Below, piece after piece: positions 8,026 to 52,751 of a DNA stretch of 64,000 nt. Under the pieces are notes generated by a model. It ran no database searches and was not told the DNA's origin. It worked only from the letters and a program-made list of their open reading frames with translations. The position numbers were made by a program, and so were the translations under genes. Numbering within the stretch: the first letter of the stretch is position 1; every line of letters begins with the position of its first letter. Origin of the DNA: Candidatus Muiribacterium halophilum (GTDB lineage: Bacteria > Muiribacteriota > Muiribacteriia > Muiribacteriales > Muiribacteriaceae); the NCBI GenBank assembly GCA_023228995.1, contig JALOAD010000001.1:84603-148602 (forward strand), read 5' to 3'.

Positions 8026-8116
8026 AAAAACAATAGAATCCCGTGAATTGAGGTCAAACCCGCAGAGGCTGTTGATTTATTCAGAATCATGCAGGGATGA
8101 CAAAAATAAAGATAGT

Positions 8117-8873: not shown

Positions 8874-8877
8874 TCTT

Positions 8878-25495: not shown

Positions 25496-25787
25496 TTGTT
25501 AACCTCTTGGGGTCGGTCCACTATTTGTTTACAACCAAAATAATTATAAGTATATATAAATTTGCAATTTTGACTTTTTTTAGTAAAAAAACATGTTTAT
25601 AACGATTTAACCAAACAAAAATTTATAAGAATTAAAAAAAATTAATAATAATTTTTAATAAATTTTTGATTTTTGCAATTATTAAATAGTATATAACAAT
25701 TTTTATCTTAAAATTTCTTAATCCCTTGCAAAATCTATAAAAAACAATATTTTTTTATATTTTGTCAAGAATTAAGGTCCGACACCA

Positions 25788-27152
25788 TCACTTTACAAAA
25801 TTTCCTATTTTTTTAATTATTTTGTCATTATCTACTACTATTTCACCTGATATAAAAACTCTTTTGATTTTTCCTTTGAATTTTCTTCCTTCAAATGGTG
25901 TGTATTTGCCTATACTTTCAAATAATTGTCCTTCTACTGTAAAGTTTTCGTCTGGATTAAATAAAATAAAATCTGCATCTGCTCCTGGATTTATATTTCC
26001 TTTTGCTGGATAAAGTCCGAAAAATTTTGCAGCATTTTGTGAACTTATTTCTATTAATCTTTTTAATGATAATTTCCCTGATATATATCCTTCTGATAAA
26101 ATATATGCAAATACTATTTCAACTCCTGGTATTCCAGCATAGTCTTTCCATATATCTCCTGTGTTTTTTTCTGTTTTTACATTACAAGGAGCATGATCTG
26201 TTGTTATAAACGATATATTACCTTTTTTTAAATAATTCCATAATGCTTCGGAATCTTCTTGATTTTTAACAACAGGTGCTGTTTTTAATATTCCTCCAAA
26301 AGTATTTAAATCATTTTCATTAAATTCAAGATAATGTGGGCAAGTTTCACATGTAATAAAAGTTCCTTTTTTTTGCCATTCATTTACAAGCTCTACTCCT
26401 TCTGCTGAACTTATATGTACAATATGTATTTTCGCACCTGTGAGTTTTGCCATATATGCTACATTATTTATTGCTAATAATTCGACTTCTACTGGTCTGG
26501 AATCTGCATAATCTAAAGGTGATTTTTTGCCTGAATTTTTAATTTTTGTTGTAAGTGTATTTACAATTGAAGGATCTTCTGCATGAATCATTATTGGTAT
26601 ATCATTTAAAACCGCAGCTTTCATTGTTTCAAAAATCTGAAAATTATCTAGTGCTTTGAATGTTTCCATTCCTGAAACAGTATATATTTTTAATGCTGTT
26701 ACTCCAAGTGTTTTTAATTGTTTTACTCTGCTATAAACATCAAAATAATTATCTTCAAATAAATTTCCTGATATTCCTCCGTGAAGTGCAAAATTACACC
26801 ATGCATTATCTTTTATTATATTTAATTTATTATTAAATCCTTTTTCATCAACTACTGGCGGAAGTGATGTGCATGGCATATCAATAATTGTTGTTACGCC
26901 ACCTTTAACTGCTCCTTTTGTACCTTTTTCAAAAGTCTCATGATTTTCAAATCCAGGAGTATTAAAATGAACATGGGAATCAATTCCACCTGGCAACATA
27001 TATTCGCCATTTCCTTCAATGATTTCAACATTTTCAAGCAATATATCATCTTTATATATAAAAGTTCTTATTTTTTGGTCAAAAAGTACATTTCCTTTTT
27101 CAAATCTATCATTTACTGGGTAATAAACATTTTTTAACAATTTTTTCTTCAT
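25788..27152 (-). CDS. Cyclic amidohydrolase (dihydroorotase/allantoinase/dihydropyrimidinase family)
   Basis: Metal-binding GGIDSHVHF motif near the N-terminus. Amidohydrolase length/pattern. Confidence 0.75.
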   Translation of the reverse strand: MKKKLLKNVYYPVNDRFEKGNVLFDQKIRTFIYKDDILLENVEIIEGNGEYMLPGGIDSHVHFNTPGFENHETFEKGTKGAVKGGVTTIIDMPCTSLPPVVDEKGFNNKLNIIKDNAWCNFALHGGISGNLFEDNYFDVYSRVKQLKTLGVTALKIYTVSGMETFKALDNFQIFETMKAAVLNDIPIMIHAEDPSIVNTLTTKIKNSGKKSPLDYADSRPVEVELLAINNVAYMAKLTGAKIHIVHISSAEGVELVNEWQKKGTFITCETCPHYLEFNENDLNTFGGILKTAPVVKNQEDSEALWNYLKKGNISFITTDHAPCNVKTEKNTGDIWKDYAGIPGVEIVFAYILSEGYISGKLSLKRLIEISSQNAAKFFGLYPAKGNINPGADADFILFNPDENFTVEGQLFESIGKYTPFEGRKFKGKIKRVFISGEIVVDNDKIIKKIGNFVK

Positions 27153-28773: not shown

Positions 28774-28877
28774 TCTTTTATAATTTAACATTCCAAATTA
28801 AACATTGCTTTTGTACTGCTTCTATACGCTTCACATACCGCTTCTATACGCTCTTATACTCTTCTTATACTTCTTCT

Positions 28878-30359
28878 CTAATAATCAAAATCAAAATCTT
28901 TTATTGGTATATATTCTTCATAAGATTGATAAACTCCAGCTTTAATAAAATTATCAACCCACCAAAAAATATCATACTTTTTTATTGAATTTCTCATTTT
29001 TTTCATTTTTTTTCTTTTTATTTTATAATCCATTTTGTAAGCTTCATAAATTGTATCTGCTGTTTTTTCAACATCAAAAGGATTAACTAACAAACATTCT
29101 TTACCTAGTTGAGCAGAAGCACCAGCAAATTCAGATAAAATAACAATACCTGTTTCTTCAATATTAGCTGCACAAAATTCTTTTACAACTAGATTCATTC
29201 CATCTTTTAATGGTGTAACCAGAGCTATTTCTGAAGTTCTATAATAAGCTAGCAATTCTTCTCTTTTTAATGAACGAAATATATAATATATTGGAACCCA
29301 TCCTAATTCTGTAAATCTACCGTTTATTTCTCCAACCATTCTCTCGATATTATCTTTAAGTTCTTTATATTTTGGTATATAAACTCTTGATGGAACTAAA
29401 ATCTGTACTAATGAGACTTTTTTTTGCATATCAGGATATTTTTCTAGTGCTCTTGCAAATGCTTTAAGCTTAAATGGTATTCCTTTTGTATAATCAAGCC
29501 TATCTATTCCTAATATTAGTTTTCTATTTGGTAAATTTTCATGCAAAAACCACGCTCTTTCTGCAACATTTGCACTATCTGCTCCATCTTTAAAAGCTTC
29601 ATAATCTATACTTATTGGAAAAGAACCAACCAGAACATCTCTGCTTTGACTTTTAATAAATACAAGATTTTCTCTTCCTCTTGCCTGTACTTTGTTTCTT
29701 AGAATTCTTCTAACACATTGTAGAAAATTTCTTTTATCTCTTGGAGTCTGAAATCCTATAAGATCATATTCTAAAAGGCTTTCAAGTATTTTTTTTCGCC
29801 AAGGTAATTTACTAAATATATCTAATGATGGAAATGGTATATGTAGAAAAAATCCAATTCTATTATTATAACCTTTTTGTCTTAATTCACTTGCTACATT
29901 AAGTAAATGATAGTCATGAACCCATATAAAATCATCTTTTATTATTTTTGACATTATTTTATTTGAAATTTTTTTATTTACGCTTAAATAAGTTTCCCAA
30001 TATTTATCTTTAAAATTACATAGTGATATTAAATCATGAAAAAGTGGCCATATTATCTCATTTGAAAAACCTTCATAGTAATTATCTCTTTCTTTTTTTG
30101 TTAAAATAATCGGTTCAAGTTCATAACCACTATCTTTAACACCTTTTGAAATAAGTTCTCCAAGGTTCTGCTCTGTTATGCCATCTTCTTCAATTATTCC
30201 AGGCCACCCTATCCAAACACCGCCTCGATTTTTTAAAACTGGTGCCATTGCAGTAACAAGTCCGCCTTTACCAGCAGAAATAGAAAAACTACCATCTTTT
30301 TTTTTGTCTATTACAACTGGCAATCGATTGGATACAATAATCAATCTTCCTTCAGACAT
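28878..30359 (-). CDS. otsA: Alpha,alpha-trehalose-phosphate synthase (GT20)
   Basis: RLIIVSNRLPV start, WVHDYHL, GT20 conservation over 493 aa. Confidence 0.9.
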   Translation of the reverse strand: MSEGRLIIVSNRLPVVIDKKKDGSFSISAGKGGLVTAMAPVLKNRGGVWIGWPGIIEEDGITEQNLGELISKGVKDSGYELEPIILTKKERDNYYEGFSNEIIWPLFHDLISLCNFKDKYWETYLSVNKKISNKIMSKIIKDDFIWVHDYHLLNVASELRQKGYNNRIGFFLHIPFPSLDIFSKLPWRKKILESLLEYDLIGFQTPRDKRNFLQCVRRILRNKVQARGRENLVFIKSQSRDVLVGSFPISIDYEAFKDGADSANVAERAWFLHENLPNRKLILGIDRLDYTKGIPFKLKAFARALEKYPDMQKKVSLVQILVPSRVYIPKYKELKDNIERMVGEINGRFTELGWVPIYYIFRSLKREELLAYYRTSEIALVTPLKDGMNLVVKEFCAANIEETGIVILSEFAGASAQLGKECLLVNPFDVEKTADTIYEAYKMDYKIKRKKMKKMRNSIKKYDIFWWVDNFIKAGVYQSYEEYIPIKDFDFDY

Positions 30360-31153
30360 TTTTCCTCCAAAAACTCATTTTTTAAAACTCTGTAAAATTC
30401 CTGATGAGAATTTATCCATATATCCGCATAAGTATTTCTGAAAGTATCTTTTATCAAAAAACTAATTCCTGAACCTTTCACTTCTAAAAAAGCATCTTCA
30501 TCAGTTATATCATCTCCAAAATACACTGGAAAACAATTTTTATTTTCTTTAATTATCTGTGAAACTGCATAACCTTTATTAAAAGATGGAATAATAAATT
30601 CATATCCACCATCAAATTCAAGAATTTTGATATTATTGAATTTATTTAATATCTGTTTTTTTAATCTTTCAATATTTTCTCTGATATTTTGTGGAATTTC
30701 TCTATAATGCAAAGCTATTGAACTAACCTTTTTTTCAGTATGTTCAACGATTTTATCAAGTTCAAGATAATCCCAGATTTTTTGTAATAAAACTTTATTT
30801 TGAGGATTAAGATTTAAATAATCACCATTAGATTTAAGAACTTCATTACCATGACTTCCCCATATACATGGAGGAAAATCAAGACAATACAAAAGTTTTT
30901 TTAGTGAATCAACTGTCCTGCCTGTAATAAAATATATTTTGTATTTTTTAGCAAGTTTATTTATTAAATCAGCAAATCCTTCATACATAAAAGCTTTTTC
31001 TCTATCTTTTACAAACGGAGCAAGCGTACCATCATAATCAAATAAAAGTATTTTATCTTTATTAATTAAAACCTTTTGATAATCTTTATAATCAAAAATG
31101 TCTTTATTCAAAAATTCCATAATCCCAGTTTTATCCTTGTTTTTACTAATCAT
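30341..31153 (-). CDS. otsB: Trehalose-6-phosphate phosphatase (HAD-IIB)
   Basis: HAD motif I LLFDYDGTL. Overlaps otsA start. Confidence 0.8.
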   Translation of the reverse strand: MISKNKDKTGIMEFLNKDIFDYKDYQKVLINKDKILLFDYDGTLAPFVKDREKAFMYEGFADLINKLAKKYKIYFITGRTVDSLKKLLYCLDFPPCIWGSHGNEVLKSNGDYLNLNPQNKVLLQKIWDYLELDKIVEHTEKKVSSIALHYREIPQNIRENIERLKKQILNKFNNIKILEFDGGYEFIIPSFNKGYAVSQIIKENKNCFPVYFGDDITDEDAFLEVKGSGISFLIKDTFRNTYADIWINSHQEFYRVLKNEFLEEKCLKED

Positions 31154-31266
31154 TAATTAGATGCAAATCATCGCTAATTAGCAATTTATTGCGTTAATTG
31201 CTTTCAATCTTCAACTCTTTAACCCATTAACCCTTTAACCATCTCACTATCTCACTATCTCACTTT

Positions 31267-32535
31267 TCACAACTCTATTCTATCTTTATCTTGATAATGA
31301 ATTGCAGCAAGCATTAAAGTAAGATATTCTCTCAAATGTCTTGTTATAAGAAAGTTTTCTCTTACAAATTCTTTTGCATTTTTGCCAATTTCAAGCATTC
31401 TTTTTTTATGATTAAAAAGATATCTAATTCTCAAAGCAGCACCTTCAGGTGTATTTACAAGATATCCAGTATGATGATTAATAACTTGAAGTCTTATTCC
31501 ACCAGTATCACCACCAATCATTGGTTTTCCTTTCCACATTCCCTCGGTTACCGTTAACCCAAAACCTTCTTTAACTGATTTTTGCAAAATTATATCTGAA
31601 CCTCTCTGAATTGCATTTATAGTTCTATGAGCATCTGCCGGAAGAAGAAGTATTTTAATGTCAGAATCTCCATAAGCAGCTTCTCTAACTTCGTTTAGTA
31701 CAGCTTCACCTTCAGGATCATCTGTTGCACCACCACCTGCAAGGACAAGTTGAAGGTCAGGAGTAAATTTTTTGACAATTTTATAAGCTTTAATAACTCC
31801 AATAGGATCTTTGAATCTATCAAATCTTGAAATCTGCGACATAATAGGTCTTGAAAGATCAATTCCATAACTAATACAAGTTTGCTTTACTTCTTTAATG
31901 TCAAGATCAATGTTTTTTTCACTTAAAGGATCTATACTTGGAAGTATAAGATATTGAGTGTGTGGCAATTTTTGAGCATAATCAGCTAAAGAAAAAACAC
32001 TAGCATCATAATCTGCTACTTTATTTTTGATATAATTCCATAAAGGTCTATATGGTTTACTAACATCAATATGGCATCTCCAAATCCATTTTCCTTTTCT
32101 TTCTGGAATATATTTCAAAAGCATAGCTGGTTGCGGATCATGAATAAAAACAACATCAGCATCTTTGAGACTATTTCTTAATTTATCAGCGTTTTCCTCA
32201 TTTGTTTTTTCATAAATATCAAGAAGCTTTTTATTCATACTAACAACATTTCCTTGTAATCCATTATGAAAATTTTTAGTACAATTATAAAATTCTTGTT
32301 CTCCTGTAACAACTTCCCATTTTGTATTAATACCTAATTCTTCTTTTAAAGGTATAAGTTTATGCAGAATTTCAGCAACACCTCCGCCAACTTTTGTAGA
32401 ATTAACATGAACTACATTTATACCTTTTAATGGAGCAGCAAGCTGATAAAGAGAATCTATAATAGGATTTCCAACTATATCTCTATAAAGATCAAGTTTA
32501 TTCATTAATTTTACCTCCTTTAAAAAAATCATCAA
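31267..32535 (-). CDS. GT4-family glycosyltransferase, TreT (trehalose glycosyltransferring synthase)-like
   Basis: N-terminal GT4_4-like region (VVHVNSTKVGGGVAEIL) and C-terminal GT1 region with the EGFGLTVTEGMWKGKP (E-x7-E) motif. Lies in the trehalose cluster. Confidence 0.55.
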   Translation of the reverse strand: MMIFLKEVKLMNKLDLYRDIVGNPIIDSLYQLAAPLKGINVVHVNSTKVGGGVAEILHKLIPLKEELGINTKWEVVTGEQEFYNCTKNFHNGLQGNVVSMNKKLLDIYEKTNEENADKLRNSLKDADVVFIHDPQPAMLLKYIPERKGKWIWRCHIDVSKPYRPLWNYIKNKVADYDASVFSLADYAQKLPHTQYLILPSIDPLSEKNIDLDIKEVKQTCISYGIDLSRPIMSQISRFDRFKDPIGVIKAYKIVKKFTPDLQLVLAGGGATDDPEGEAVLNEVREAAYGDSDIKILLLPADAHRTINAIQRGSDIILQKSVKEGFGLTVTEGMWKGKPMIGGDTGGIRLQVINHHTGYLVNTPEGAALRIRYLFNHKKRMLEIGKNAKEFVRENFLITRHLREYLTLMLAAIHYQDKDRIEL

Positions 32536-36664: not shown

Positions 36665-39600
36665 TCAAAACAATTGTTGATTTTCTAATTTTTCTGTTCT
36701 AAATATTGATTTTTCAAGATTTTCATCCAAAGATATATTTTCAGAGTTTTTTATTTGTCTATCAATTTTCAAATATTCATCTTTTTCAAAAGTGCTTTTT
36801 TTAATTTTAAGCATATAAATTAGATTAAAACAGTTAAATATTGAATTTTGTTTAAGATCAGATAAACATATAAGCTGAGTATTAAATTTTTTGGCAATTT
36901 CAAATAAAGGAATAAGAAGATGTTGACTTGATATTGGACCGAATGGATTGTCCATTATAAGTATTCTTGAATCTTTTCCTGCTAAATTCTCAGAATTATT
37001 TATCATAGTATTATTTCTTATATATGCCATTAAAGCTGATATAACTGCAAAAAATACTACAAATTTTTCACCACCAGAATTTTCACTTATTGCACTTTCC
37101 CATTTTTTCCAACGATTATTTGCTGTATTAAGATCAATTTTATAAACACTTACTGGAATTGAATTTCTTCCTGAATACTGATTTATCAATTCTCTTGTAG
37201 ACATTAATCTAAAAATACTTTTATTTATTTTTTCGTTTTCATAATTTTGTCTTTTTTCTTCTCTAATATTTTGTATACAAGAATCAATATATTTTTCTAT
37301 TCTTTTTTTAGCATTTTCTTCATTATCAATATCTGTGTTTATCTTTATCATCTGAATTGGTCTGATTTTTTCTGATAATTTCACAGAAGATGATAATGCT
37401 ATTTTACCAAGTTCTTCAAATACTCTTTGAGCATGCACAAAACATTGAAATACAACATCATTTCTATTTTTTTCAACATTTTCAAGTCTTATTCTATTTA
37501 TTTCTATTAATTCACTTATTTTTATTATATAATCTTTTAATCTTTCAAAAAGATAATAATATTCATTGTATTTTTTATTTTTCCTTTCAATCATACTATC
37601 AATTGAAGTAAAAAGATTATCTATATTTTGATTTTTATGTTTAAATTCAGATCTTAATAATGAATAATTACCAATAAGCTGTTTTTCTTCATTATCCATT
37701 TGTTCTTTAAACAATTTATAATTACTTTCAAGATTTTTATAAATTATTTCAATGTTATCTTTTATATCAAATTCAATTATAGAGCTTGAAGGTAAATTTA
37801 AAATATCAATTCTTTGTTTAATTTTTTTAAATTCAGCAATTTCTTTTCTTAACTTTTTTTCAAGTAATATGTAATCTTTGCGATTTGAATTAATTGTATT
37901 TTTTCTTGCAATAAAATCTTGTTTGATATTTTCTCTTGGACAAGCTTTATCATAATCTAATCTTTCAATTTCCTTAAAAGCTTGTTCTTTCCCTCTATTT
38001 TCAGAACTTATATCTTTATCAACTATATTATAATCAGATATAATAGAATTTAGTTTATTATTTTGTAAATAGATATCAATTTCTGTTTTTTCTTCAATTT
38101 CTATGTTATATTCAATGTTATTCACTTCTTCTTCGTTAAATTTAAATCTTGAAAGTTCTTTTGTAAATTCTGATATTTCATTAATTGATTTTTCTTTTAA
38201 GATTATTAATGCTGAAAAATCTTTTGAATATTCTTTTTTCAAATTCTCATATATACTTAAAAGTTCTTCAATATTTTCTTTGAGTATTTCAGATTTTTCT
38301 TGAGCATTTGAGAATTTTAATTTATATTTTTCACATTCTGTTAATTTATTTTTTATAATTTCAATATTTTTATTTAATCCTGAAATTTCATTATTTATTT
38401 TTATAATTTCATTTTCATTTAATAAAATATCTTTATTGAGTTTTTCTATTGTTTTTTGAAGATTTTTTCTTTTTTCTAATATTCTGACATATTCTGAATC
38501 TTTCACTATAAATTCATTGAAATCATGTAATTTGACATTTAATAAATTGAGTTTATTTTGTTTTTCATTTAATTTATTTATATTATTCCTGATATTTATT
38601 TCTGCATTTTTATTTTCATTATTTAAAATTTCAATTTTTTTTTCTATTTCATTAGTTTTTTGTAATAAATCTCTTTCATTTTTTTCAGCTTGATATAAAA
38701 AATCCTCTTTATAATCAAATTCTTGAAGAATTCTAAAATCATTTGATGCAATATTATAAGAATTAGCAATATCCTTATATATATTTTCAAGAGATTTTTT
38801 TTCATTTTCTTTTTCATTAAGAAATTTTTCAGTTTTATCAATTTCAAATATTCGTTTTTCAACATTAACAATAAAATTCAAATCTTCATTGATTTTAATA
38901 AATACATTATTGTTTTCAAAATCAACATTTGTATTTTCATAAAAAAATAAAGGAATTGAACTTTTAATAAATTTATCTTTAAATACATCTTTAACTTTAT
39001 TAATTTGATCTTTTTTTAATATAATTGAATAAGCAAGAAGAGGATTTTTTTCAAGTAAAGAATTTCTATTATCTTTTTTTTGATTTTTAATAAAATTCTC
39101 ACCAGTTTCAAATTCAATATTATTATTAATCAAAATATCAATTATATTTTGATCTATATGAAGAGAATTTTGTTTAATTCCTTTAATAATATTTTCAATT
39201 AATTTTATATCAGAAGAAAGTTCTTTTTTTCTATTATCATAATCAATAAGAATATTTTTAAATTCAAATTCAATATGTTTTTTATCAAAAATTCTTTGTT
39301 TTTTTAATTCATATTTTTTTAATATTTCATAAGATTTATCTCTTTTATCTGTGAATAATGCAATTTCATCTATTTTTTTTTGATAAAGTAAAATATTATC
39401 TCTAACTTTATTAGAAAAGTCTTTGATTAAATCAGAATTATTTTGCAATTTATTTTCTAATTTTAAATTTTGCTCATTTATTTGTAAAATCTCATTATTA
39501 TGATTTGCAATTTTATTTTCAATTTCACTTATAAATAAATTAAACTCATCTATATCAATCTGCCCAAGAATATTTCTTAATATTTTAACATTATTATTTT

Positions 39601-41074
39601 TTTCAAAATCCAATTGATATTTTTCAAATATAATAGCTTTTTCATTTACAGAACCAAGACTAATATTAGAAGAATTAATTGTTTTTTTAAATTCTTTTTG
39701 TTTAATTAAAATTTCTTCAAGATTTTGCTTTGAAATTTGTTTATTATTTTCAATATTTTTATATTGATTTTGTAAATTTACAATTCTTTCATCAAACTTT
39801 ATTTTTAGAGAATATTCAATATGAGATAATCTTTCTTGTATATTGGAATTTTTTTCAAGACTTAAAATTTTTTCATTATAACCTTTTAAATCATTTTCAC
39901 AATTGATTTTTTTATCATAAATCTTTTTAAATCGAAGTTTTTCAAGAAATATATTAAGTTTTTTTATATTATCTTTTAAAATATTAATCTTTTCTAATAA
40001 TGTGATTTTTCTTTTTTCCAAAATTTCAAGCTTATCAACAGAATTATAATAATCAAGACTTCTTTCTTCATAATCAATATTTTTAAGAGAATATTCAGCT
40101 TGAATTAAAAATTTAGAAATATCATTTTCCTCTTTTTCAAGTTGTTCTATTTTATCACTTAAAATATTTTCAATATATTTAATTTTCTTTTCAGTATTTT
40201 CTTTATTTTCAATAATTGCAGTAAAAATCTCAATATCTTTTGAAAAATCCTCAAGTTTTTCTGAAAAATTCTGCAAAAGCTCTTTTTCAATAAGAAATTC
40301 CTCATTTCTAATTATTTCATCAACAAGATTAGACATCATTTGTCCAAGATGCCCAGCTTGATTTTTATCTTTATAGAAAACCTTTAATATTGTTTTATTT
40401 AAAAACCATTCATTAATCAATTGATCTGAATTTTTACATTTTTGAAAAATCTCATCAAGACCACCTTCACTATCATTTATACCAATGATTATATTTTTCC
40501 ATTCATCCTGAGAAATTCCATATTCAGATAAATGCTCTCTATATTCTTCCATATTTTCCTGAGAAAATATCCTAAAATCCATTGAAGATTTTTTAGCTCT
40601 TTCATCAGCAAATTCTCTAGCTTTTTTATAATTCATAACATTAATAACATTTCCTTTCCTAGCAGAAAAACCAATATTACTAATATCATAAGAATTTGAC
40701 TGTGAATATTTTGATGTAAACATAAAAAATCTAAGCCTTGAGTTTTTTTCTCCATCCATTCCATGAAACTCATGATTTTCACAAACAATACCTGTTAAAA
40801 GATAATCAGAAGAATAATCAAGTTTCCATTCTATCATTATAAAACAAGGTAATTTAGAAGTTTTAAAAAAATCAGCAAATTTTCTACCTTGAATCTTTGC
40901 CCCAGGTACAATTGGTTGAAGCATAACTTGAACAAGAACACTCTTTCCTCCACCATTTGCAAGACTTAAAAGAGCATTTTCACCTTTATAAAAATCAAAC
41001 ATTTCATCAGTAATATGTCTTGTAAAATTATTATATGAAAAATTAAGAACTCTTATTCGATTGATTTTAGGCAT
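36665..41074 (-). CDS. jetC: Wadjet JetC / MksB-like SMC-family ABC ATPase (1469 aa)
   Basis: N-terminal Walker A LANGGGKSVLVQV. Very long coiled-coil middle. C-terminal signature NSGGEKF and Walker B ILIMDNPFG. Last gene of the jetDABC operon. Confidence 0.75.
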   Translation of the reverse strand: MPKINRIRVLNFSYNNFTRHITDEMFDFYKGENALLSLANGGGKSVLVQVMLQPIVPGAKIQGRKFADFFKTSKLPCFIMIEWKLDYSSDYLLTGIVCENHEFHGMDGEKNSRLRFFMFTSKYSQSNSYDISNIGFSARKGNVINVMNYKKAREFADERAKKSSMDFRIFSQENMEEYREHLSEYGISQDEWKNIIIGINDSEGGLDEIFQKCKNSDQLINEWFLNKTILKVFYKDKNQAGHLGQMMSNLVDEIIRNEEFLIEKELLQNFSEKLEDFSKDIEIFTAIIENKENTEKKIKYIENILSDKIEQLEKEENDISKFLIQAEYSLKNIDYEERSLDYYNSVDKLEILEKRKITLLEKINILKDNIKKLNIFLEKLRFKKIYDKKINCENDLKGYNEKILSLEKNSNIQERLSHIEYSLKIKFDERIVNLQNQYKNIENNKQISKQNLEEILIKQKEFKKTINSSNISLGSVNEKAIIFEKYQLDFEKNNNVKILRNILGQIDIDEFNLFISEIENKIANHNNEILQINEQNLKLENKLQNNSDLIKDFSNKVRDNILLYQKKIDEIALFTDKRDKSYEILKKYELKKQRIFDKKHIEFEFKNILIDYDNRKKELSSDIKLIENIIKGIKQNSLHIDQNIIDILINNNIEFETGENFIKNQKKDNRNSLLEKNPLLAYSIILKKDQINKVKDVFKDKFIKSSIPLFFYENTNVDFENNNVFIKINEDLNFIVNVEKRIFEIDKTEKFLNEKENEKKSLENIYKDIANSYNIASNDFRILQEFDYKEDFLYQAEKNERDLLQKTNEIEKKIEILNNENKNAEINIRNNINKLNEKQNKLNLLNVKLHDFNEFIVKDSEYVRILEKRKNLQKTIEKLNKDILLNENEIIKINNEISGLNKNIEIIKNKLTECEKYKLKFSNAQEKSEILKENIEELLSIYENLKKEYSKDFSALIILKEKSINEISEFTKELSRFKFNEEEVNNIEYNIEIEEKTEIDIYLQNNKLNSIISDYNIVDKDISSENRGKEQAFKEIERLDYDKACPRENIKQDFIARKNTINSNRKDYILLEKKLRKEIAEFKKIKQRIDILNLPSSSIIEFDIKDNIEIIYKNLESNYKLFKEQMDNEEKQLIGNYSLLRSEFKHKNQNIDNLFTSIDSMIERKNKKYNEYYYLFERLKDYIIKISELIEINRIRLENVEKNRNDVVFQCFVHAQRVFEELGKIALSSSVKLSEKIRPIQMIKINTDIDNEENAKKRIEKYIDSCIQNIREEKRQNYENEKINKSIFRLMSTRELINQYSGRNSIPVSVYKIDLNTANNRWKKWESAISENSGGEKFVVFFAVISALMAYIRNNTMINNSENLAGKDSRILIMDNPFGPISSQHLLIPLFEIAKKFNTQLICLSDLKQNSIFNCFNLIYMLKIKKSTFEKDEYLKIDRQIKNSENISLDENLEKSIFRTEKLENQQLF

Positions 41075-41766
41075 TATATTGCATCCTCAAATATTTCTCT
41101 AATATCTTTAACTCTATCCTGATCAAGATAATAATTTATCATTATATCATCAAGCTTAGATGTAGATCTAATTTCTCTATTATCATCAAGTATAATAATA
41201 AGATCTTCTTTTTGCATAAATCTTGCAGCTTTAATAACAGTATAAGTTTTAGTTTTTCTTGAATTTTCATCATATCCTTGTTTTGAATCCCATTCTTGAG
41301 CTATTTTTATAAAATTAATACTATATTTTTCTTCCATTTTTTCATAATCTTCCGAATTTGAAAGAATACGAATAAATCTTTCATCAAGTTTTTCAACAAT
41401 TTCATGAATTCTAATAAAATCTCTTTGTTTTGGATTACGATTTTTACCACCATAAAAAATATGAAGAATAAACATAGATATATACGAATTAAGAAATACA
41501 TCAACAAGTCTTGCATCACTTCCTAACCATTCTCTCATATTTTTAGAAGTCCATCCCAAAAGATCATTTGAAGAATTCGGGATAATATAAGCTATATGAG
41601 AAAGTTCAACAATATCAAATTCAAAAACTTCTTCAAAATCATATAGAATAGTTCTAATATCAGGATTTTTAAATTCAATAAATAATTCAAGATCATTATC
41701 CTTAGATAATTCACCTTTTTTTAGAAGTATTCTAAATATATTAAGAGCTGTTTTTAATTCACTCAT
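41074..41766 (-). CDS. jetB: Wadjet JetB / MksE-like (DUF4194-type) subunit
   Basis: 230-aa acidic helical protein between the kleisin-like and SMC-like genes. 1-nt and 4-nt start/stop overlaps. Confidence 0.55.
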   Translation of the reverse strand: MSELKTALNIFRILLKKGELSKDNDLELFIEFKNPDIRTILYDFEEVFEFDIVELSHIAYIIPNSSNDLLGWTSKNMREWLGSDARLVDVFLNSYISMFILHIFYGGKNRNPKQRDFIRIHEIVEKLDERFIRILSNSEDYEKMEEKYSINFIKIAQEWDSKQGYDENSRKTKTYTVIKAARFMQKEDLIIILDDNREIRSTSKLDDIMINYYLDQDRVKDIREIFEDAI

Positions 41767-43376
41767 ATTTGAACCTCAATAAGAAAATCAGACAATATTA
41801 TTTTTTTATTAATATTTAAATTATTTTCAGATATTGTATATTCACATTCAAAATTCACATTGTCATCCTTTGATATTTTAATACTAATAACATTATAAAT
41901 ATCAGGATTTTCATCCTCAATAGCATATAAACAAACATTAGCATCAAACTCGCCAGATATATCAGCAATAATATTTTCTCTTTCTTTCTTCCAAGCTATA
42001 ATATCAAGCAATCCAATATCATAAAGCTTTAACATTGTTCTAAATATTCTTTCTTCACTTGTAAAAACATCAATATTTTCATATTTTTCATTAAGAAAAC
42101 TAAAAAAATCAGAAAATCTAAATTTATTAAACTCTTTTCCATAAATCATAATATTTTTCACAATATCAATATAAGCATTTGTTCTTTCTTTTTCAAGAAA
42201 AATAATACTTTCATCATTTTCAGTTAAATTTTCCACAATATCAGAAAAATTAGCAAATTCTTTTTCCCTAAGCTTGTATTGTCTTTCATATAATTTAATT
42301 AAATTAAGTATATTTTTAATATCTGGTTTAAAAATTGGATTAAAAAGTTTCCATAAACAACAATATTTATCCTCAGATAATTTTTCCATAACACAAAGAA
42401 TTTCATCTTCAATATCAAATCTTCTATTAATTGTTTTTGAAAAAGAATCTCCAATTGTGTCAATATATATTTTAGATAAATTATGCCTATTTATAATCAA
42501 TTCTCTCTGTTCAGAAACAGTTCTATCAATGTTTTTTAGAATTTCAGCAATATCATTTTTAGCTTTTCTAATTTCCACATTATCACTATCAGAATTTTCA
42601 TCTTTAAACAAATTAAATTCAGATAATTTCACAGTTTTATGAATATCATCCATAACTTTATACTCATCTTCAAGAAGAGCATAAGTACCCTTGATAATAA
42701 TTTCATACTCAGCAACATCAACTGAATAAATATTTTCACGAAGTTTTTCAAGAAATCTTAAAATCTCTGATTTTTTTTGCCTAACCATTTGAACAAGACT
42801 TCTGCTTTGCAATACAGCTTTTTTGTAATTTTTACGCTTAATAAGTTCTTTAAGTTTTAATTCTTCAATAGTAAAACTAATTTCATCATCAACTTCCTTT
42901 GTCCTAAAAAGAAAATCATAACCTTGATCAGTAAGTCTATAAATAACTTTATAACTTTTTTCAGTATAAATAACTTTATCATCAATAAGTTTAACCCTAT
43001 ATTTAATTTTTCCAGCAGAATAATCCATAATATCAAAAAATCTTGGTTTACCACCATTTTGAAGAATATCCTTAACAAGATATTCAGCCAAAATTAAATT
43101 ATCAATATCAATTTCACCATAAAAAGGAAGAATTAAACCAAGAAAATCCGCAATATTATTAATACTACATTCATTATCTTCTGAAAGAGTTTTTTCCATT
43201 ATAAAAACAAGAAGAGAAAAAAGAATATTTTCCAAATCACCTGAATTAAAACGATTTTCAATATCCATTTTACGCTCTCTGCGATTAACAATAGAATCAA
43301 CAGCCCCAGAAACCTGCATTCTTTTATAAAAACCCTCAAGATATTCAGGATATTTAGCAATCACAATTTTCTCCAA
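41763..43376 (-). CDS. jetA: Wadjet JetA / MksF-like kleisin-type subunit (DUF3375-type)
   Basis: 537 aa. Position and size fit jetA. Helical with winged-helix-like segments. Confidence 0.55.
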   Translation of the reverse strand: MEKIVIAKYPEYLEGFYKRMQVSGAVDSIVNRRERKMDIENRFNSGDLENILFSLLVFIMEKTLSEDNECSINNIADFLGLILPFYGEIDIDNLILAEYLVKDILQNGGKPRFFDIMDYSAGKIKYRVKLIDDKVIYTEKSYKVIYRLTDQGYDFLFRTKEVDDEISFTIEELKLKELIKRKNYKKAVLQSRSLVQMVRQKKSEILRFLEKLRENIYSVDVAEYEIIIKGTYALLEDEYKVMDDIHKTVKLSEFNLFKDENSDSDNVEIRKAKNDIAEILKNIDRTVSEQRELIINRHNLSKIYIDTIGDSFSKTINRRFDIEDEILCVMEKLSEDKYCCLWKLFNPIFKPDIKNILNLIKLYERQYKLREKEFANFSDIVENLTENDESIIFLEKERTNAYIDIVKNIMIYGKEFNKFRFSDFFSFLNEKYENIDVFTSEERIFRTMLKLYDIGLLDIIAWKKERENIIADISGEFDANVCLYAIEDENPDIYNVISIKISKDDNVNFECEYTISENNLNINKKIILSDFLIEVQI

Positions 43377-44418
43377 GAAATTTCATAAAAACCTCATAAT
43401 TAACAATTTCTTGCGGAATATACAACTTAGAATTAAGAATAAATTTAATATTATTTTGAATTTCAAAGTTAAAATAATCTAAAAAAACATCAATATCAAT
43501 ATTTTTCTTCCTTAAAGAAAAACATTTAGGCAAATTAATATTATAAGATAATTTTATCATTAATTCGTATAATCGCATAAACGGATATACCAAACATTCA
43601 GAATTATTACTCAAAATCCTCATAAAAATATCAACACCCTCAAAATCCAAATCACCAAAATATAAAAAATCAACTTTATCAGCAATATTATTTTCTAAAA
43701 TATACAATCTATAATAATCAAGAGCATTTTTTCTTGTAATTTTATTACCCTCACCGTAAATCAAAACATCAATATAAAGACCAAAAATCAAATTCTCACC
43801 TTTATTTTGAATAGCTTTTTTCAAAGAAAACCAAGTATCTTTATTTTCAATAACAAGAATTTTCATATCTTTATTTTTCCCACAAACATATTCAAAAAAC
43901 GGTTCATAAGTATCAAAAAAATTAAGAAAATTCAATTCAAGCTTATTAAATTTAAAAACCTGTTCTAAAAGAGATAAATTTTTTTCAATAAATTTTTCAT
44001 AAAGAAATATTTCAAAAGATCTTTCATTTCTTGAAATCTTCAATTTAGGAATACAATTATTTTGCCATAAATAATCAGAAATAGGTTCTAAAACACATTT
44101 ATGAATATTATATTTTTGAGGATATTTAAGATATTTTTCAATACAAAAAACAGGATTCAACCTTCTAATTTCTTCAAAAACAACATTATTATAAGGTTTA
44201 TCAGCAACAATTCTATATCTATTAAATAAAGGAAATTTAATATTACCATCAGTATTAGAAGCTTTTATCCTACAAATAATATTTTCATTTTCAAGAATTG
44301 AAATTTTTTGAAAAAGTTCACAATTCTGTTTTTCGTCAATAATAACAGCAATTTCTTTAAGAGTAATTGTCTTTTTTTTATATTTTTGTAATTTTTTCCT
44401 AATCAAATTTATATTCAA
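43354..44418 (-). CDS. jetD: Wadjet JetD / MksG-like nuclease subunit (C-terminal Toprim, DUF2220-type)
   Basis: Toprim acidic motifs ILVIENKDTW (Glu) and LYFGDLDFEGVDIF (DxD) about 54 aa apart in the C-terminal half. First gene of the operon, as in mksGFEB. Confidence 0.65.
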   Translation of the reverse strand: MNINLIRKKLQKYKKKTITLKEIAVIIDEKQNCELFQKISILENENIICRIKASNTDGNIKFPLFNRYRIVADKPYNNVVFEEIRRLNPVFCIEKYLKYPQKYNIHKCVLEPISDYLWQNNCIPKLKISRNERSFEIFLYEKFIEKNLSLLEQVFKFNKLELNFLNFFDTYEPFFEYVCGKNKDMKILVIENKDTWFSLKKAIQNKGENLIFGLYIDVLIYGEGNKITRKNALDYYRLYILENNIADKVDFLYFGDLDFEGVDIFMRILSNNSECLVYPFMRLYELMIKLSYNINLPKCFSLRKKNIDIDVFLDYFNFEIQNNIKFILNSKLYIPQEIVNYEVFMKFLGENCDC

Positions 44419-46277: not shown

Positions 46278-46739
46278 CTATTTCCTTGTTTTTAATGCTT
46301 CATCTATTCCATTAACTATATATTCATAACCAGTACATCTGCAAAGATTTCCAGAAATAGCTCTTTTAATTTCATCTCTTGAAAAATCTCTATCCTGAAT
46401 AAAAAGTGCATAAGCTGACATAACCATACCTGGTGTGCAAAATCCACATTGAACAGCTCCTGCTTCGACAAGTTTTTGTTGAATAATATGAAGTTGTCCG
46501 TTTTTGGAAATTCCTTCAATTGTTAAAACTTCTTTACCATGAACAACTGGAGCTAAAACAGTGCATGAAGTAACAGCTTTATTATCCATTACAACAGTAC
46601 AAGCTCCACATTCTCCTTTATCACAGCCTTTTTTTGTACCTGTAAGTCCAAAAATATCTCTAATCATTCTTAATAGTGAAAAATGTTCAGGAACATCACA
46701 TTTCACCTTTTCATTATTTAATGTAAATTCAACAATCAT
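46278..46739 (-). CDS. Molybdo-hydroxylase [2Fe-2S]-binding small subunit
   Basis: Plant-type ferredoxin motif CDKGECGACTV and second cluster motif CGFCTPGM...CRCTGY. Confidence 0.9.
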   Translation of the reverse strand: MIVEFTLNNEKVKCDVPEHFSLLRMIRDIFGLTGTKKGCDKGECGACTVVMDNKAVTSCTVLAPVVHGKEVLTIEGISKNGQLHIIQQKLVEAGAVQCGFCTPGMVMSAYALFIQDRDFSRDEIKRAISGNLCRCTGYEYIVNGIDEALKTRK

Positions 46740-49000
46740 TCTTTCCCCCTGATACTTTCCAAAACTCTTTCTGGAATTGCTGGAATATTTTTAATTCTAC
46801 CACCACATGCATTATAAATTGAATTTGTTAATGCTGGAGCCATTCCCATCAGAGGTTGCTCAGCAAAACCTTTAGCACCATAAGGTCCTTTAGGATATTT
46901 TTCTTCAACAATAATAGGATTCCATTCAGGATAATCACAAGCTGTTGGTATTGTATAAGTAGAAAAATTATTTGTTAAAAATTTACCTTGACTTGAAACT
47001 TGCATATTTTCCATAAGACCATAACCTAAACCCTGTAAAGAACCGCCCATTATCTGACCTTTAACTTCTCTTGGATTAACAGCTTTTCCAACATCATGAG
47101 CACAAGTTGCTTTTATTATTTTCACCTCACCAGTCCTTGTATTAACTTCTGTTTCAACAACATTTGCCCCCCAAGCATAAGTATAATAAGCATCACCTTG
47201 ACCATGTTCATCAAAACTACATTCTGGTGGAATATGTAGAGCTGCTGCATGTAATGTAAGTTTTTTATCAGTTGCCCATTTAATAACATCAAAATAGCTT
47301 TCTTCATGATTTCCAAATAACACTTTCCCGTCTTTATAATGTATATCTTCAAATTTTTCATTAAATTTTTCTTCAAGAAATTTATGAATTCTCTTTTTGA
47401 TTTTATTAAGAGCTTTTAAAATTCCCCAACCAGCAGTTATTGTACCTCTGGAAGCAACTGTAGGACCTGAATCAAGAACTCTTGAAGTATCAACCTGTGA
47501 AACAACAATATTATCTTCCAAAATACCAAGAAATTCAGCAGCCATTTGTGCAGCCACAGTTCTCATTCCCTGACCCATATCAACTACACCAACAGAAACA
47601 GTAACAGAACCATCTCCATCAATCTTTGCAGTTCCAGCAGCTCTTGACATGTGTTTACCAGCATCACCAAGACCAACTCCATAATAAACAGCTGAAACTC
47701 CAATACCTTTTTTAATATTATCTGAAACATTATTATATTCTTTAAATTCTTTGATTTTATTATAATAATCAGATTCATCAATACATTTATCAAAAGCTTC
47801 CAAAAGCCCAACAGAATCTTCTAAAACTTGATTAGTACAAGTTCTATCCCCAAGCTTCAAAAGGTTTTTTTGACGAATATCAGCCGGATCCATATTAAGT
47901 TTTTCAGCCATTTGATCAATTATAGATTCCATAGCAAAAATAGTTTGAGGAGATCCAAAACCTCTATAAGCACCATTAGGAGCAGTGTTTGTAGCAACAG
48001 CTTCACCTATAACATCAACGTTTTCAATATTATATGGACCTGAAAGATGAATTGTACCACGATAAAGTACAGCAGGAGTAAGAGTTGCAAATGCTCCAGC
48101 ATTTTCAAGATAATAACCTTTTACTGCAACAAATTTACCAGTTTTATCAGCCCATAAAGTAATATCTGTTCTAGCTGGATGTCTTTTTGACATTGTTTGC
48201 ATATCTTCTTCTCTATTATAAATAATCTTAACAGGTTGTCTTAAATGATAAGCACAAATTGCAGCCTGAGAACAAACTATATTTGGAACATCTTCCTTAC
48301 CACCAAAAGCTCCACCAGTCATCTGTTGAATAACCCTGACTCTTGATTTTTTCATATTAAGAACTTCAGTAACAGCCTGCTGAACATAAAACGGAGCCTG
48401 CATAGAACCACGAATTGTAAGAGTATTGTCTTCCCAATAAACCACAGCTCCCTGAGGTTCAATATAAGCATGTTCTTGATGTTGAGTATAATATGAATCA
48501 CTAATACTAATAAGATCACTATCGTTAATAATATCCATATTTCCATGATCAATATGATATTTACAAAAAATATTATCATCACCATAAAGTTTTATAGAAT
48601 TATTTTTAGATTTTTCAAAATCAAGAAGAGGTTCAAGTTCTTCAATTTCCAGTTTAATTTTTTTAATAGCTTCTTTACAAGCTTCTTCACTATTTGCAGC
48701 AATAACCGCAATTGGTTGACCCGGATATTTAACAAAATCTGAAGCTAAAAATATTTGATCATCATAAATAACATGAATTATATTTTTTCCAGGAACATCC
48801 TTATAAGTAAAAATTCCTTTAACACCAGGTACTTTTTTAGCAAGTTCAAGGTCTAGATTTTTTATTTTACCATAAGCCACAGGAGATCTAAACACTTTAG
48901 CATAAAGCATATTAGACATTTTAATATCTTCAACATAAAGAGTTTTTCCAGTAACCTTTTCCACAGAATCAAGTCTGATAATTGATTTTCCAACTCCCAT
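46736..49000 (-). CDS. Molybdopterin-binding large subunit of a xanthine-dehydrogenase-family hydroxylase
   Basis: 754 aa. Ald_Xan_dh_C/C2 conservation (GGAFGGKE, AHDVGKAVNP). Confidence 0.9.
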   Translation of the reverse strand: MGVGKSIIRLDSVEKVTGKTLYVEDIKMSNMLYAKVFRSPVAYGKIKNLDLELAKKVPGVKGIFTYKDVPGKNIIHVIYDDQIFLASDFVKYPGQPIAVIAANSEEACKEAIKKIKLEIEELEPLLDFEKSKNNSIKLYGDDNIFCKYHIDHGNMDIINDSDLISISDSYYTQHQEHAYIEPQGAVVYWEDNTLTIRGSMQAPFYVQQAVTEVLNMKKSRVRVIQQMTGGAFGGKEDVPNIVCSQAAICAYHLRQPVKIIYNREEDMQTMSKRHPARTDITLWADKTGKFVAVKGYYLENAGAFATLTPAVLYRGTIHLSGPYNIENVDVIGEAVATNTAPNGAYRGFGSPQTIFAMESIIDQMAEKLNMDPADIRQKNLLKLGDRTCTNQVLEDSVGLLEAFDKCIDESDYYNKIKEFKEYNNVSDNIKKGIGVSAVYYGVGLGDAGKHMSRAAGTAKIDGDGSVTVSVGVVDMGQGMRTVAAQMAAEFLGILEDNIVVSQVDTSRVLDSGPTVASRGTITAGWGILKALNKIKKRIHKFLEEKFNEKFEDIHYKDGKVLFGNHEESYFDVIKWATDKKLTLHAAALHIPPECSFDEHGQGDAYYTYAWGANVVETEVNTRTGEVKIIKATCAHDVGKAVNPREVKGQIMGGSLQGLGYGLMENMQVSSQGKFLTNNFSTYTIPTACDYPEWNPIIVEEKYPKGPYGAKGFAEQPLMGMAPALTNSIYNACGGRIKNIPAIPERVLESIRGKE

Positions 49001-49061
49001 ACAATACCCCTTTTTCTGTTTTTTTAAATTATATCACAAAAAACTACTTTAAATAAAAAAA

Positions 49062-49490
49062 TTGTTTTTTGTAAAGCTCTGGGGTCGGTCCACTTTAGGT
49101 TTTCAACTGAAATATTTATAAGTATAATTTATGATTTTTAATTTTAACGATTATAAGGTTTATTTATCCATAAAAAAAACAAATTTTATAAAATTTTATT
49201 AACAATATAGACATTATTTATTTAGTAAATTAAATTAAATTTATTGTATTTTATAAAATCCTGAAATCATAATATTTTGTTTTCTATCAATCCTTTCAGA
49301 ATTAAAAATGTTGATAATTCTTGAAAATTAAATTTAAAAAACATCATTTTATAAAAAATTTATTTTTTCATTTTAAATTCTAAGTTGCAATTCAATTTCA
49401 AATTGAAATTTGACCATTATAATCAGCAATTTTAATTCTCGCAGTGAAATTTGTAAACATTTCAAGCACCGACCCCAAGCTTTACAAAAT
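49062..49490. repeat. 24-bp inverted-repeat pair (TTTTGTAAAGCTCTGGGGTCGGTCC at 49062-49086; GCACCGACCCCAAGCTTTACAAAA at 49467-49490) bracketing a 380-bp AT-rich segment
   Basis: The arms are 24/25 identical as reverse complements. A third arm-like copy (CTTGGGGTCGGTCCACTATTTGTTTACAACC) is at 25497-25530. Confidence 0.75.
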
Positions 49491-49504
49491 TTATATTATA
49501 GAAA

Positions 49505-50587
49505 TTGAAAATTTATGCCGATTTTGTCTTTATGAGAAAAAATATTTTTTTATTTTTTATTATTTTAATTCTTTTATCAAAAATTTTTGCACAAAGTGCA
49601 AAAGATCCTGTAAAGGAAACTTTTAGTTATTTTGATAAATTTGGTCTTATTCAGACTACTTCTCAACTTTATAATTCGCAATTAAATATTTCTTCTCTTG
49701 AAAAAGCTGAAATTATTATTGAAATTTGTGAAAGGCTTTTTTCAAAAGAAAAAAAAGTTCCATTAAATATGAATGTTTTACAAAATCTTAAAACTTCAAT
49801 TGAAAATTATTCTACTGAAATATTACTTACTGGAAGATTAGACCCAGATGAAGCTCTTAGAAAAATCAGACAATTTATGCTTGATAAAAGAGATATGCAA
49901 TTTGGATATCAACCTTCTCTTGAAAAAGGTATTTATGCAAAAGAATTTTTAAAAAAAGTTCAAGTATCGCAAGAAAGCAGTGATATTGATGGTAATTTTA
50001 TTGCTGTTGACCGTGAAAATATTATAAAAAGTGGTAAGATTAAAATTAAAAATATTATTGGTTTTGATTTAAATAAAAAAAGTTATTTTTCTTTAAGAGG
50101 TGGTTTTTTTGAACCAGATTCTTCTCTGCCATACATTAAATCAGATTACATTTATGGTATTAATCTAGGTTTTCATAGAACTTCAAGAATGTCATTTGAT
50201 ATAAGCTCAACTTCTTATGAAATTAACGATTCTGGTAATTTCTTTGGAAATATCAACGATAAATACAGTTTAAAAATAAATCCTATATCTTTTAGTGTTA
50301 GATATTTTTTATTTAAACTTCATAAAATTCTTCCTTATGGGGGATACGGAATATCAAAGGTTAGATTAAAACATAAACTAAACAGCATTGTAAATGAAAA
50401 AACATTTTATACTCCGCATATTCTTTATGGTGCTGAATATTTTGAAAAAGATAGATTTTCAATTTTTTCTGAGCTAAATTATTATCTTTCAAAAACTGAA
50501 AGTCTTAATATTAATGGAAAACGATATAATTTTGATATTGATAAGTTTACAATTCATTTTGGTATTAAATTTTATTTTAATGGATAA
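49505..50587 (+). CDS. Outer-membrane beta-barrel protein with N-terminal soluble domain (start possibly at 49532, MRKNIF...)
   Basis: Signal peptide (FIILILLSKIFAQS). C-terminal amphipathic beta-strand region ending in ...FTIHFGIKFYF (terminal aromatic), typical of OMP barrels. Confidence 0.5.
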   Translation: MKIYADFVFMRKNIFLFFIILILLSKIFAQSAKDPVKETFSYFDKFGLIQTTSQLYNSQLNISSLEKAEIIIEICERLFSKEKKVPLNMNVLQNLKTSIENYSTEILLTGRLDPDEALRKIRQFMLDKRDMQFGYQPSLEKGIYAKEFLKKVQVSQESSDIDGNFIAVDRENIIKSGKIKIKNIIGFDLNKKSYFSLRGGFFEPDSSLPYIKSDYIYGINLGFHRTSRMSFDISSTSYEINDSGNFFGNINDKYSLKINPISFSVRYFLFKLHKILPYGGYGISKVRLKHKLNSIVNEKTFYTPHILYGAEYFEKDRFSIFSELNYYLSKTESLNINGKRYNFDIDKFTIHFGIKFYFNG

Positions 50588-52691: not shown

Positions 52692-52751
52692 CAGTATGAT
52701 TAAGTTAAAACAAAATCAAATCCTGGCTCAAAATCATACCGGGATGACACT

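Follow-up and report, generated by a model that had tools for sequence, protein, structure and literature searches.

The divergent xdh and OMP-like genes of the window (the whole stretch of 64,000 nucleotides that was analysed) are separated by an intergenic region at 49001–49533, in which an AT-rich segment, here named E1, is bracketed by inverted repeats, and the question was whether this arrangement represents an invertible promoter switch or a MITE, as had been proposed in the first-pass annotation, or an element of another kind. Comparison of the repeats with those at other loci, including one where they flank a transposase gene, favored the last option: with a probability of roughly 0.8, E1 is a non-autonomous element formed by the two terminal inverted repeats of a TIRtron (TIRYT, TnpA-REP subclass 2.1) and not an inversion switch. 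The features of the locus were as follows.

46736–49000, minus strand: xdh molybdopterin (Mo)-subunit gene, divergent neighbor of E1
49028–49038, minus strand: extended -10 of xdh, TGTGATATAAT, read from the sequence and located outside E1
49067–49489, plus strand: element E1, composed of L arm, transposase-type promoter, unrelated AT-rich spacer and R arm
49067–49106, plus strand: L-type arm of E1, with outer half TTTTGTAAAG (49067–49076), core GGGGTCGGTCC (49081–49091) and inner half GTTTTCAA (49099–49106)
49100–49128, plus strand: promoter-like site TTTTCA-17-TATAAT, 10/12 match, at the same position as the TIRYT promoter in the transposase locus L133
49129–49450, no strand: spacer of E1, about 15% GC, without homology to the spacers of other members
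49451–49489, minus strand: R-type arm of E1, with inner half (49451–49458), core GGGGTCGGTGC in minus-strand reading (49466–49476) and outer half (49480–49489)
from 49534, plus strand: OMP-like gene for a 351-aa secreted protein, the other divergent neighbor of E1

Element E1 comprised 423 bp with 20% GC and had no ORF. The inverted repeat around the intergenic segment proved to be real, albeit with 23 instead of 24 matches over 25 positions: the left copy at 49067–49091 reads TTTTGTAAAGCTCTGGGGTCGGTCC and the reverse complement of 49466–49489 reads TTTTGTAAAGCT-TGGGGTCGGTGC, the two differing by one mismatch and a 1-base indel, the latter causing an ungapped repeat finder to report the repeat in two pieces. 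The similarity of the arms extended inward to approximately 40 nt per arm (49067–49106 and 49451–49489), through GTTT(T/A)CAA, and in nhmmer searches both were recognized by the arm profile, the left one with E 7e-10 and the right one with E 5e-8. Since the window has only about 26% GC, the GC-rich 11-mer of the core is rare: GGGGTCGGTCC with no more than one mismatch was present three times in the window, whereas shuffling gave an expectation of 0.01, and the 27-nt pattern core-N7-GTTTACAA was also present three times against 0.00 expected. The promoter-like site is directed inward, toward the OMP-like gene at 49534. Inside the spacer, at 49394–49409, there is a perfect palindrome, AATTTCAA/TTGAAATT. 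The two neighboring genes were indeed divergent, but the assignment of the 351-aa protein as an OMP was weak (OMP_b-brl 19.5 bits, below the cutoff of 28.7).

The absence of a recombinase from the window, already mentioned in the first-pass annotation, was confirmed for the Pfam-scanned ORFs, which made up most of the window, except for some small ORFs and for the ORFs at 13.8–14.6, 52.8–53.3, 58.6–59.1, 60.7–61.2 and 62.3–63.7 kb. Neither a recombinase nor a transposase was detected among the scanned ORFs by Pfam or in the window by tblastn with the transposase of the family, and the tblastn search also gave no transposase relic within E1, the second element described below or the rest of the window. 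Inspection of the sequence revealed no direct repeats or target-site duplication flanking either of the two elements.

A third copy of the core, reported 6 bp upstream of the uvsE start, was present as well, with its core 13 nt from the uvsE ATG (25495) and the whole arm (from 25495/6) abutting the start codon. This copy turned out to be the L arm of a complete element, E2, whose degenerate R arm had been missed.

25495–25800, plus strand: element E2, second complete family member in the window
25495–25534: L arm of E2, core at 25509–25519
25528–25556: promoter-like site of E2, TTTACA-17-TATATA
25761–25800: degenerate R arm of E2, core GGTCCGACACC at 25776–25786, CTTTACAAAA at 25791–25800

The R arm of E2 is inverted and lies about 270 bp beyond the L arm. 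A profile search of the window with the arm detected exactly four arms, that is, the two pairs of E1 and E2. The second element sits in an operon, directly before uvsE, and overlaps functional sequences on both sides: the uvsE RBS AAGAGG is within the outer part of its L arm, while the outer part of its R arm includes the final four codons and the stop codon of an amidohydrolase gene. The outer half of this R arm encodes the amidohydrolase end ..GNFVK*, which aligned with the extreme C-terminus ..GKYIK* of the orthologous protein from the type species, where the element is absent. In this species, the amidohydrolase gene directly overlaps a CoA-binding gene, with neither uvsE nor E2 in between. 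When only the core-to-core segment (25509–25787) was removed from E2 in silico, the junction became TGA-T-AAGAGG-N7-ATG, which is typical of a tight operon. Because the outer half of the E2 R arm encodes an orthologue-aligned C-terminus, the AT-rich outer halves may be part of the target rather than of the element.

Seven more loci with such arms were recovered when public metagenome contigs were scanned with a pattern, the contigs being AT-rich and originating from one sample (Ga0265293). The family thereby comprised 20 arms, distributed over nine loci in a single organism, a Muiribacteriota MAG, with the core and the half-sites common to all of them. The arms were mostly arranged as inverted pairs 170–840 bp apart.

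Ga0265293 contigs L123, L129, L130 (duplicated in L136), L131, L135 and L141: arm-pair loci
Contig L133: arm pair 1.5 kb apart, with the transposase gene between the arms

A first genome scan with the pattern TGGGGTCGGTSCN8TTNNCA was unspecific; among the matches listed, the source organism was not represented, and GC-rich genomes contributed chance hits. Two further pattern matches in viral contigs with 44% GC were rejected as unrelated.

Read from outside to inside, the 20 aligned arms consisted of (T)TG(T/A)AAA(C/G), a variable stretch of 3–5 bases with an invariant T at its end, the core, approximately 7 variable bases and the inner half GTTT(A/T)CAA. The core GGGGTCGGTCC was 95–100% conserved per column, and the half-sites on either side of it, TTGTAAAC ... 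GTTTACAA, were AT-rich and partly complementary. Two arm types were distinguished: the L type continues with (N)AAATAnnTATAAGTAT and runs into the transposase promoter, whose -35 hexamer is the inner half of the arm, and the R type continues with AAAAnCTCCAAAAC-like sequence. The L arms of E1 and E2 were alike over about 65 nt, which is longer than the likeness of L to R within one element and makes the elements polar. The window arms folded no better than shuffled sequences (z from -0.6 to +0.9, with one at -2.4), and some other arm copies were perfect 20-bp hairpins; the arms are most aptly viewed as long, partly self-complementary inverted repeats. A covariation between the arm halves (TGTAAAC/GTTTACA versus TGAAAAC/GTTTTCA) was considered and rejected, since they were paired in 75.4% of cases compared to 75.1% in shuffles.

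The conservation was restricted to the ends. In shuffle-controlled global alignments of seven pairs, the interiors (12–19% GC) had a mean z of 0.57 compared to about 10 for the ends, and the likeness did not reach further inward than approximately 75 nt (L side) or 60 nt (R side). Lenient blastn produced many interior alignments with about 60% identity, but these were compositional, as the shuffle-controlled alignment was negative. Most of the family members were located between gene 3' ends or inside an operon. For ten arms, the distance to the stop codon of the adjacent gene was between -13 and +13 nt, while the gap between arm and gene at 5' ends was 43–110 nt, with the exception of uvsE, where it was 0. 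The positions near stop codons match the known preference of REP-type repeats for sites downstream of genes (PMC3733652).

A gene between arms of this kind was found in L133 only.

L133, 4991–6013, minus strand: transposase ORF, 329/340 aa, the single ORF between the arms
L133, 4602 (plus strand) and 6136 (minus strand): arms forming a 55-nt inverted repeat, 76% complementary

The protein was identified as a Y1 transposase (Y1_Tnp 54.8 bits, Pfam cutoff 23) with a weak Bac_DnaA_C tail (E 4e-6). Its best NCBIfam model was REP_Tyr_transpos, with 63.3 bits and thus below the equivalog cutoff of 80, and the match to the NCBIfam IS200 model was weak (18.9 bits). More than 7000 homologues were retrieved at E <= 1e-10, many of them named RayT by JGI, the nearest being 48–51% identical and belonging to Muiribacteriota and Wallbacteria. 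The HUH motif (NHYHLL) and the tyrosine of YIHLNP were invariant in 23 homologues, and a family profile of the C-terminal 90 residues matched DnaA domain IV chains (E 9e-7). The best PDB match of the AlphaFold model (pLDDT 85.6) was 4ER8, a complex of E. coli TnpA-REP with a REP hairpin (E 2.6e-6, TM 0.76); the TnpA structures of IS608 and ISDra2 came next, and the C-terminal tail of the model matched the DnaA DNA-binding domain, 3PVP. The best promoter-like site of the locus, TTTACA-17-TATAAT (11/12), directly adjoins the L arm on its inner side and precedes the ORF, the -35 of the site being the inner half of the arm. The transposase was seen at a single locus in a housekeeping neighborhood. 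A similar organization was present in other homologues: in a different organism (L146), the gene of a 50%-identical protein was flanked by a 28-nt inverted repeat, AGGGTGTCGGTTTTCGACATTGACAAAA (AGGGTGTCGG...TTGACA), after which come 17 nt, TATAAT and the ATG, with a similar upstream layout in L147 and L148.

Genes of this type have been described as TIRYTs ("TIRtrons"), which are RAYT-like and flanked by long inverted repeats (TIRs) sharing GGGGWSAS (Di Nocera et al., 2013, PMC3733652); the TIR families are moderately abundant and dispersed as singles, dimers and clusters (PMC3733652). Most TIRYTs fall into the TnpA-REP-like subclass 2.1 with a Bac_DnaA_C/HTH tail (Quentin et al., 2018, PMC6006769). 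Our literature search retrieved no experimental work on TIRYTs, which are known from comparative genomics, the term being found only in PMC3733652 and PMC6006769.

The window elements were linked to the transposase locus by their ends: the arm and promoter of L133 were 85% identical over 62 nt to the L arm of E1 and 81% over 69 nt to that of E2, and each of the two elements had one arm of each type together with a promoter-like site but no gene. An exact-sequence look-up demonstrated that the window proteins and the transposase were both deposited as "Candidatus Muirbacterium halophilum" and shared two MAG accession series (MCK9223846/9224151/9224508 and MCK9474367/9475957). On this ground, and from the shared repeats, a transposase-bearing copy appears to be present in the same genome, outside the window, in agreement with two other repeat families common to the window and the Ga0265293 contigs.

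A relative with 82% amino acid identity in both the xdh and the OMP-like proteins contained the same divergent pair, but its intergenic region was only 152 bp long and had no arm, so that E1 represents extra DNA in the source lineage. The promoter-proximal flanks were alignable between the two, including the extended -10 of xdh, a similar version of which (TATGATATAAT) was kept in the relative. This is, however, one site in one fairly distant relative, and a deletion there may be an alternative. To delimit the element ends, a second empty site was looked for via the radical-SAM gene next to the arms of L123, but the closest relative had a different neighbor there.

Taken as a mechanism, the TIRtron reading would involve the following. 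A TIRtron is a single RAYT-like Y1/HUH gene, coding for a protein with a DnaA-domain-IV-like C-terminal HTH, between inverted arms of about 40 nt. By analogy with TnpA-REP and IS608 TnpA, the TIRYT would recognize the arms, probably in a single-stranded and partly folded state, specificity being conferred by the invariant core, and the HTH domain would possibly help recognition on duplex DNA. By the same analogy, the single transposase gene would have disseminated or preserved the arm pairs in trans. Copying of whole units, as in REPINs, has no support here, given that the spacers are unrelated between the copies. The putative sigma-70-type promoter of E1 faces the OMP-like gene and may add to its transcription, and the promoter of E2 would run antisense into the amidohydrolase gene.

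The presence of perfect cores beside random-looking spacers could indicate that the arms are under selection for a host function, and two more far-reaching variants can be derived from the data, which we regard as unlikely, albeit worth considering. Either a domesticated TIRYT installs or maintains portable arm pairs as promoter or transcript-boundary modules, which would be compatible with the invariant core next to neutral-looking spacers, the arms at stop codons and the promoter in the L arm, or the outer half-site is a host target that pairs with the inner half-site. The latter variant resembles IS608, where the target is chosen by an internal guide sequence of the element.

An explanation that overlaps with the TIRYT-ends reading rather than opposes it is that the arms are immobile operators or binding sites of a domesticated protein, either the TIRYT acting via its DnaA-like HTH or a host factor, and are kept by selection for functions in gene regulation, chromosome organization or at transcript ends. 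The core that is near-invariant in 20 arms next to spacers as different as shuffled sequence would be expected from such sites, as would the position of ten arms at no more than 13 nt from a stop codon and the single transposase locus in its housekeeping neighborhood; with the transposase -35 inside the arm, binding there would be autoregulatory, and RAYTs in general behave like vertically inherited, domesticated genes (PMC5581495). Nevertheless, the intact and invariant catalytic HUH and tyrosine argue for a retained nuclease activity, the arm is unlike a DnaA box (PMC6006769), and the orthologous site without the element means that arms are gained or lost. This explanation is considered improbable.

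The invertible promoter, in which a recombinase encoded elsewhere would flip 49092–49465 and thereby toggle the OMP-like gene or xdh, seemed attractive from the locus itself: an AT-rich segment within inverted repeats, divergent genes with one putative surface protein, and a good promoter-like site inside E1 aimed at the OMP-like gene. The occurrence of the repeats at several loci would also be compatible with it, since global invertases such as Mpi of Bacteroides act on the same repeats at several loci. The further data gave it no support and left it with a very low probability. No tyrosine or serine recombinase was present among the scanned ORFs of the window. Three independent assemblies each were available for E1 (the window, L001 and L002, from ENA and JGI) and E2 (the window and L149 and L150, two Logan assemblies), and both elements showed 100% identity and a single orientation among them. 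These orientation data are at the assembly level, and a rare inversion at E1 or E2 may have escaped them. The arms are polar, with the transposase promoter in L and a distinct R, unlike a symmetric pair of recombination sites, and they flank a Y1 transposase gene. Moreover, a switchable promoter makes little sense between gene 3' ends or inside an operon, where most of the members are located, and for xdh a conserved extended -10 is available outside E1.

The MITE proposal came close in that the family is gene-less apart from the transposase locus, its ends being the TIRs of a transposase-bearing element; with terminal inverted repeats of about 25–40 bp, a size of 200–420 bp and non-coding, intergenic copies, the elements also look like MITEs. 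A classical MITE, however, i.e. an internally deleted DDE-type IS moving by cut-and-paste with target-site duplication, is an equally remote explanation for E1, because the enzyme encoded by the one gene found between such arms is of the Y1/HUH and not of the DDE type, neither E1 nor E2 lies between direct repeats, and the interiors are unrelated among the copies. The Y1/HUH enzyme, the lack of a target-site duplication and the conservation of the ends only make TIRtron-derived TIR dimers and REPIN/BIME-like doublets the nearest classes. Least credible of all is a structured ncRNA of about 400 nt closed by a stem of its complementary ends (approximately 24 nt, with a promoter-like site just inside the L arm), as Rfam gave no match at gathering thresholds and otherwise chance-level ones, the interior has 15% GC and differs between the copies, and a transcript from this site, which is downstream of the L arm, would lose the 5' strand of the stem.

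Several other assignments of E1 were tried and discarded. For an ncRNA or CRISPR, no Rfam family reached the gathering score in the window, and a permissive Rfam scan of 48900–49650 produced only chance-level hits to CRISPR-DR49/50 (E 0.35–2) derived from the internal AT palindrome. An integron attC had no GTTRRRY/RYYYAAC pair, and a tmRNA-like structure had neither a T-arm nor G3:U70.

Interpretation of E1 as a pair of TIRYT ends removes a candidate phase-variation switch and explains two GC-rich inverted repeats in an AT-rich genome. For annotation it is a warning that E1 may feed a transposon-derived promoter toward the OMP-like gene. The Muiribacteriota family also offers a clean case for the biochemistry of DNA recognition by TIRYTs, having a short invariant core, two arm types, an arm-embedded promoter, one intact transposase gene and about ten gene-less pairs.

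Compared to known systems, the elements share with fimS of E. coli and the Mpi-controlled promoters of Bacteroides fragilis the short inverted repeats, a promoter-like site, a surface-protein neighbor and the occurrence at several loci, but differ from them in the lack of an invertase among the scanned window ORFs, the single orientation in all assemblies, the polar arms and the Y1 transposase. The TnpA of IS200/IS605 elements (IS608, ISDra2) has the same Y1/HUH fold and, presumably in common with the TIRYT, recognizes folded single-stranded ends without target duplication; their ends, however, form directly oriented hairpins on one strand instead of inverted repeats, and the elements are multicopy and autonomous. 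The REP/BIME/REPIN systems with their RAYTs (E. coli YafM, 4ER8; REPINs of Pseudomonas fluorescens, PMC3116915, PMC3479197) are closer: the transposase is homologous, the gene is flanked by its own inverted repeats, most repeats lie outside genes, on their downstream side, and two repeat subtypes are paired head to head, as are the Y and Z REPs of BIMEs. In contrast to them, the arms described here have no GTAG tag, are weakly palindromic and enclose long spacers that are not co-copied, they apparently occur in tens of copies (at least 20 arms with one transposase locus) instead of hundreds, and the protein has an extra C-terminal HTH and an NCBIfam score of 63 against the cutoff of 80 bits. 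The closest similarity is to the TIRtrons, which likewise have a Y1/HUH gene of about 315–330 aa with a Bac_DnaA_C/HTH tail, long inverted repeats with a GGGG-led motif and repeats dispersed in moderate numbers as singles, dimers and clusters. The core of the present family, GGGGTCGG, matches GGGGWSAS in 7 of the 8 positions (G for A at position 7), while the homologues L146 and L148 carry GGGTGTCGG at this motif. Here, the host is a member of the Muiribacteriota with 26% GC, the dimers are 200–420 bp long with unrelated spacers, the L arm contains the transposase promoter and the arms often touch stop codons. The arm family thus fits the TIRtron class on every tested point but the core motif, and E1 is an element REPIN/BIME-like in its logic and MITE-like in its appearance, of a known, little-studied kind, found here in a candidate phylum.

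Ordinary cargo can sit between the arms of the E1/E2 repeat family, as follows from one of the AT-rich metagenome contigs of sample Ga0265293, L123, where the bracketed gene encodes a DUF2939 protein and not a transposase, and is faced by the promoter-bearing arm:

L123 8291-9157: inverted arm pair, both arms with L-like extensions, flanking an intact 197-aa DUF2939 gene

The spacer of E1, one of the two gene-less elements in the window, contains a palindrome which was the source of chance-level Rfam matches to CRISPR direct-repeat families; this palindrome was not seen in other members of the arm-pair family:

49394-49409: perfect 8+8 palindrome AATTTCAA/TTGAAATT

The left arm of the second element, E2, includes the uvsE ribosome-binding site within its outer part. 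The amidohydrolase and CoA-binding genes on either side of uvsE directly overlap each other in the type species, and therefore uvsE was either gained in the window lineage or lost in the type species:

24605-25495, minus strand: uvsE, between the amidohydrolase and CoA-binding genes

Three other repeat types were present in the genome:

46188-46238 and 58406-58456: 51-nt repeat TTGCTAATTAGGTGCAAAGCACCGCTAATGYTCTTTCTTGCTT, two copies 94% identical
52707-52749, minus strand; L133 9555-9598 and 9953-9995: palindromic REP-like repeat TGTCATCCCGGTATGATTYTGAGCCRGGATYT
2327-2373 and 28807-28868; L141 6536-6597: short arrays of tandemly repeated units, each 9-10 nt long and resembling GTATAAGAGC

The 51-nt repeat encloses a small hairpin (GGTGC-AAA-GCACC) and both of its window copies are intergenic, while the REP-like repeat, with the stem ATCCCGG/CCGGGAT, is common to the window and the transposase-bearing contig L133. 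The tandem runs were found at several loci of the same genome.

Two adjoining genes, in a stretch (7048-11439) with a GC content of just 18-19%, may represent a defence locus; PADLOC gave no match for the STAND protein:

7048-8025, minus strand: SIR2_2/ThsA-like protein gene
8878-11439, minus strand: STAND NTPase gene (853 aa, NB-ARC/nSTAND6)

A complete Wadjet system was recognized by PADLOC (E 1e-78 to 3e-167), and trehalose synthesis genes were located within a putative island at ~28.5-44.4 kb:

28878-32535: trehalose synthesis genes
36665-44418, minus strand: type III Wadjet system, JetD3-JetA3-JetB3-JetC3

This entire stretch looks like an insertion, because the gene-order comparison placed the xdh FAD-subunit gene directly next to the 456-aa FAD-dependent gene in the type species.
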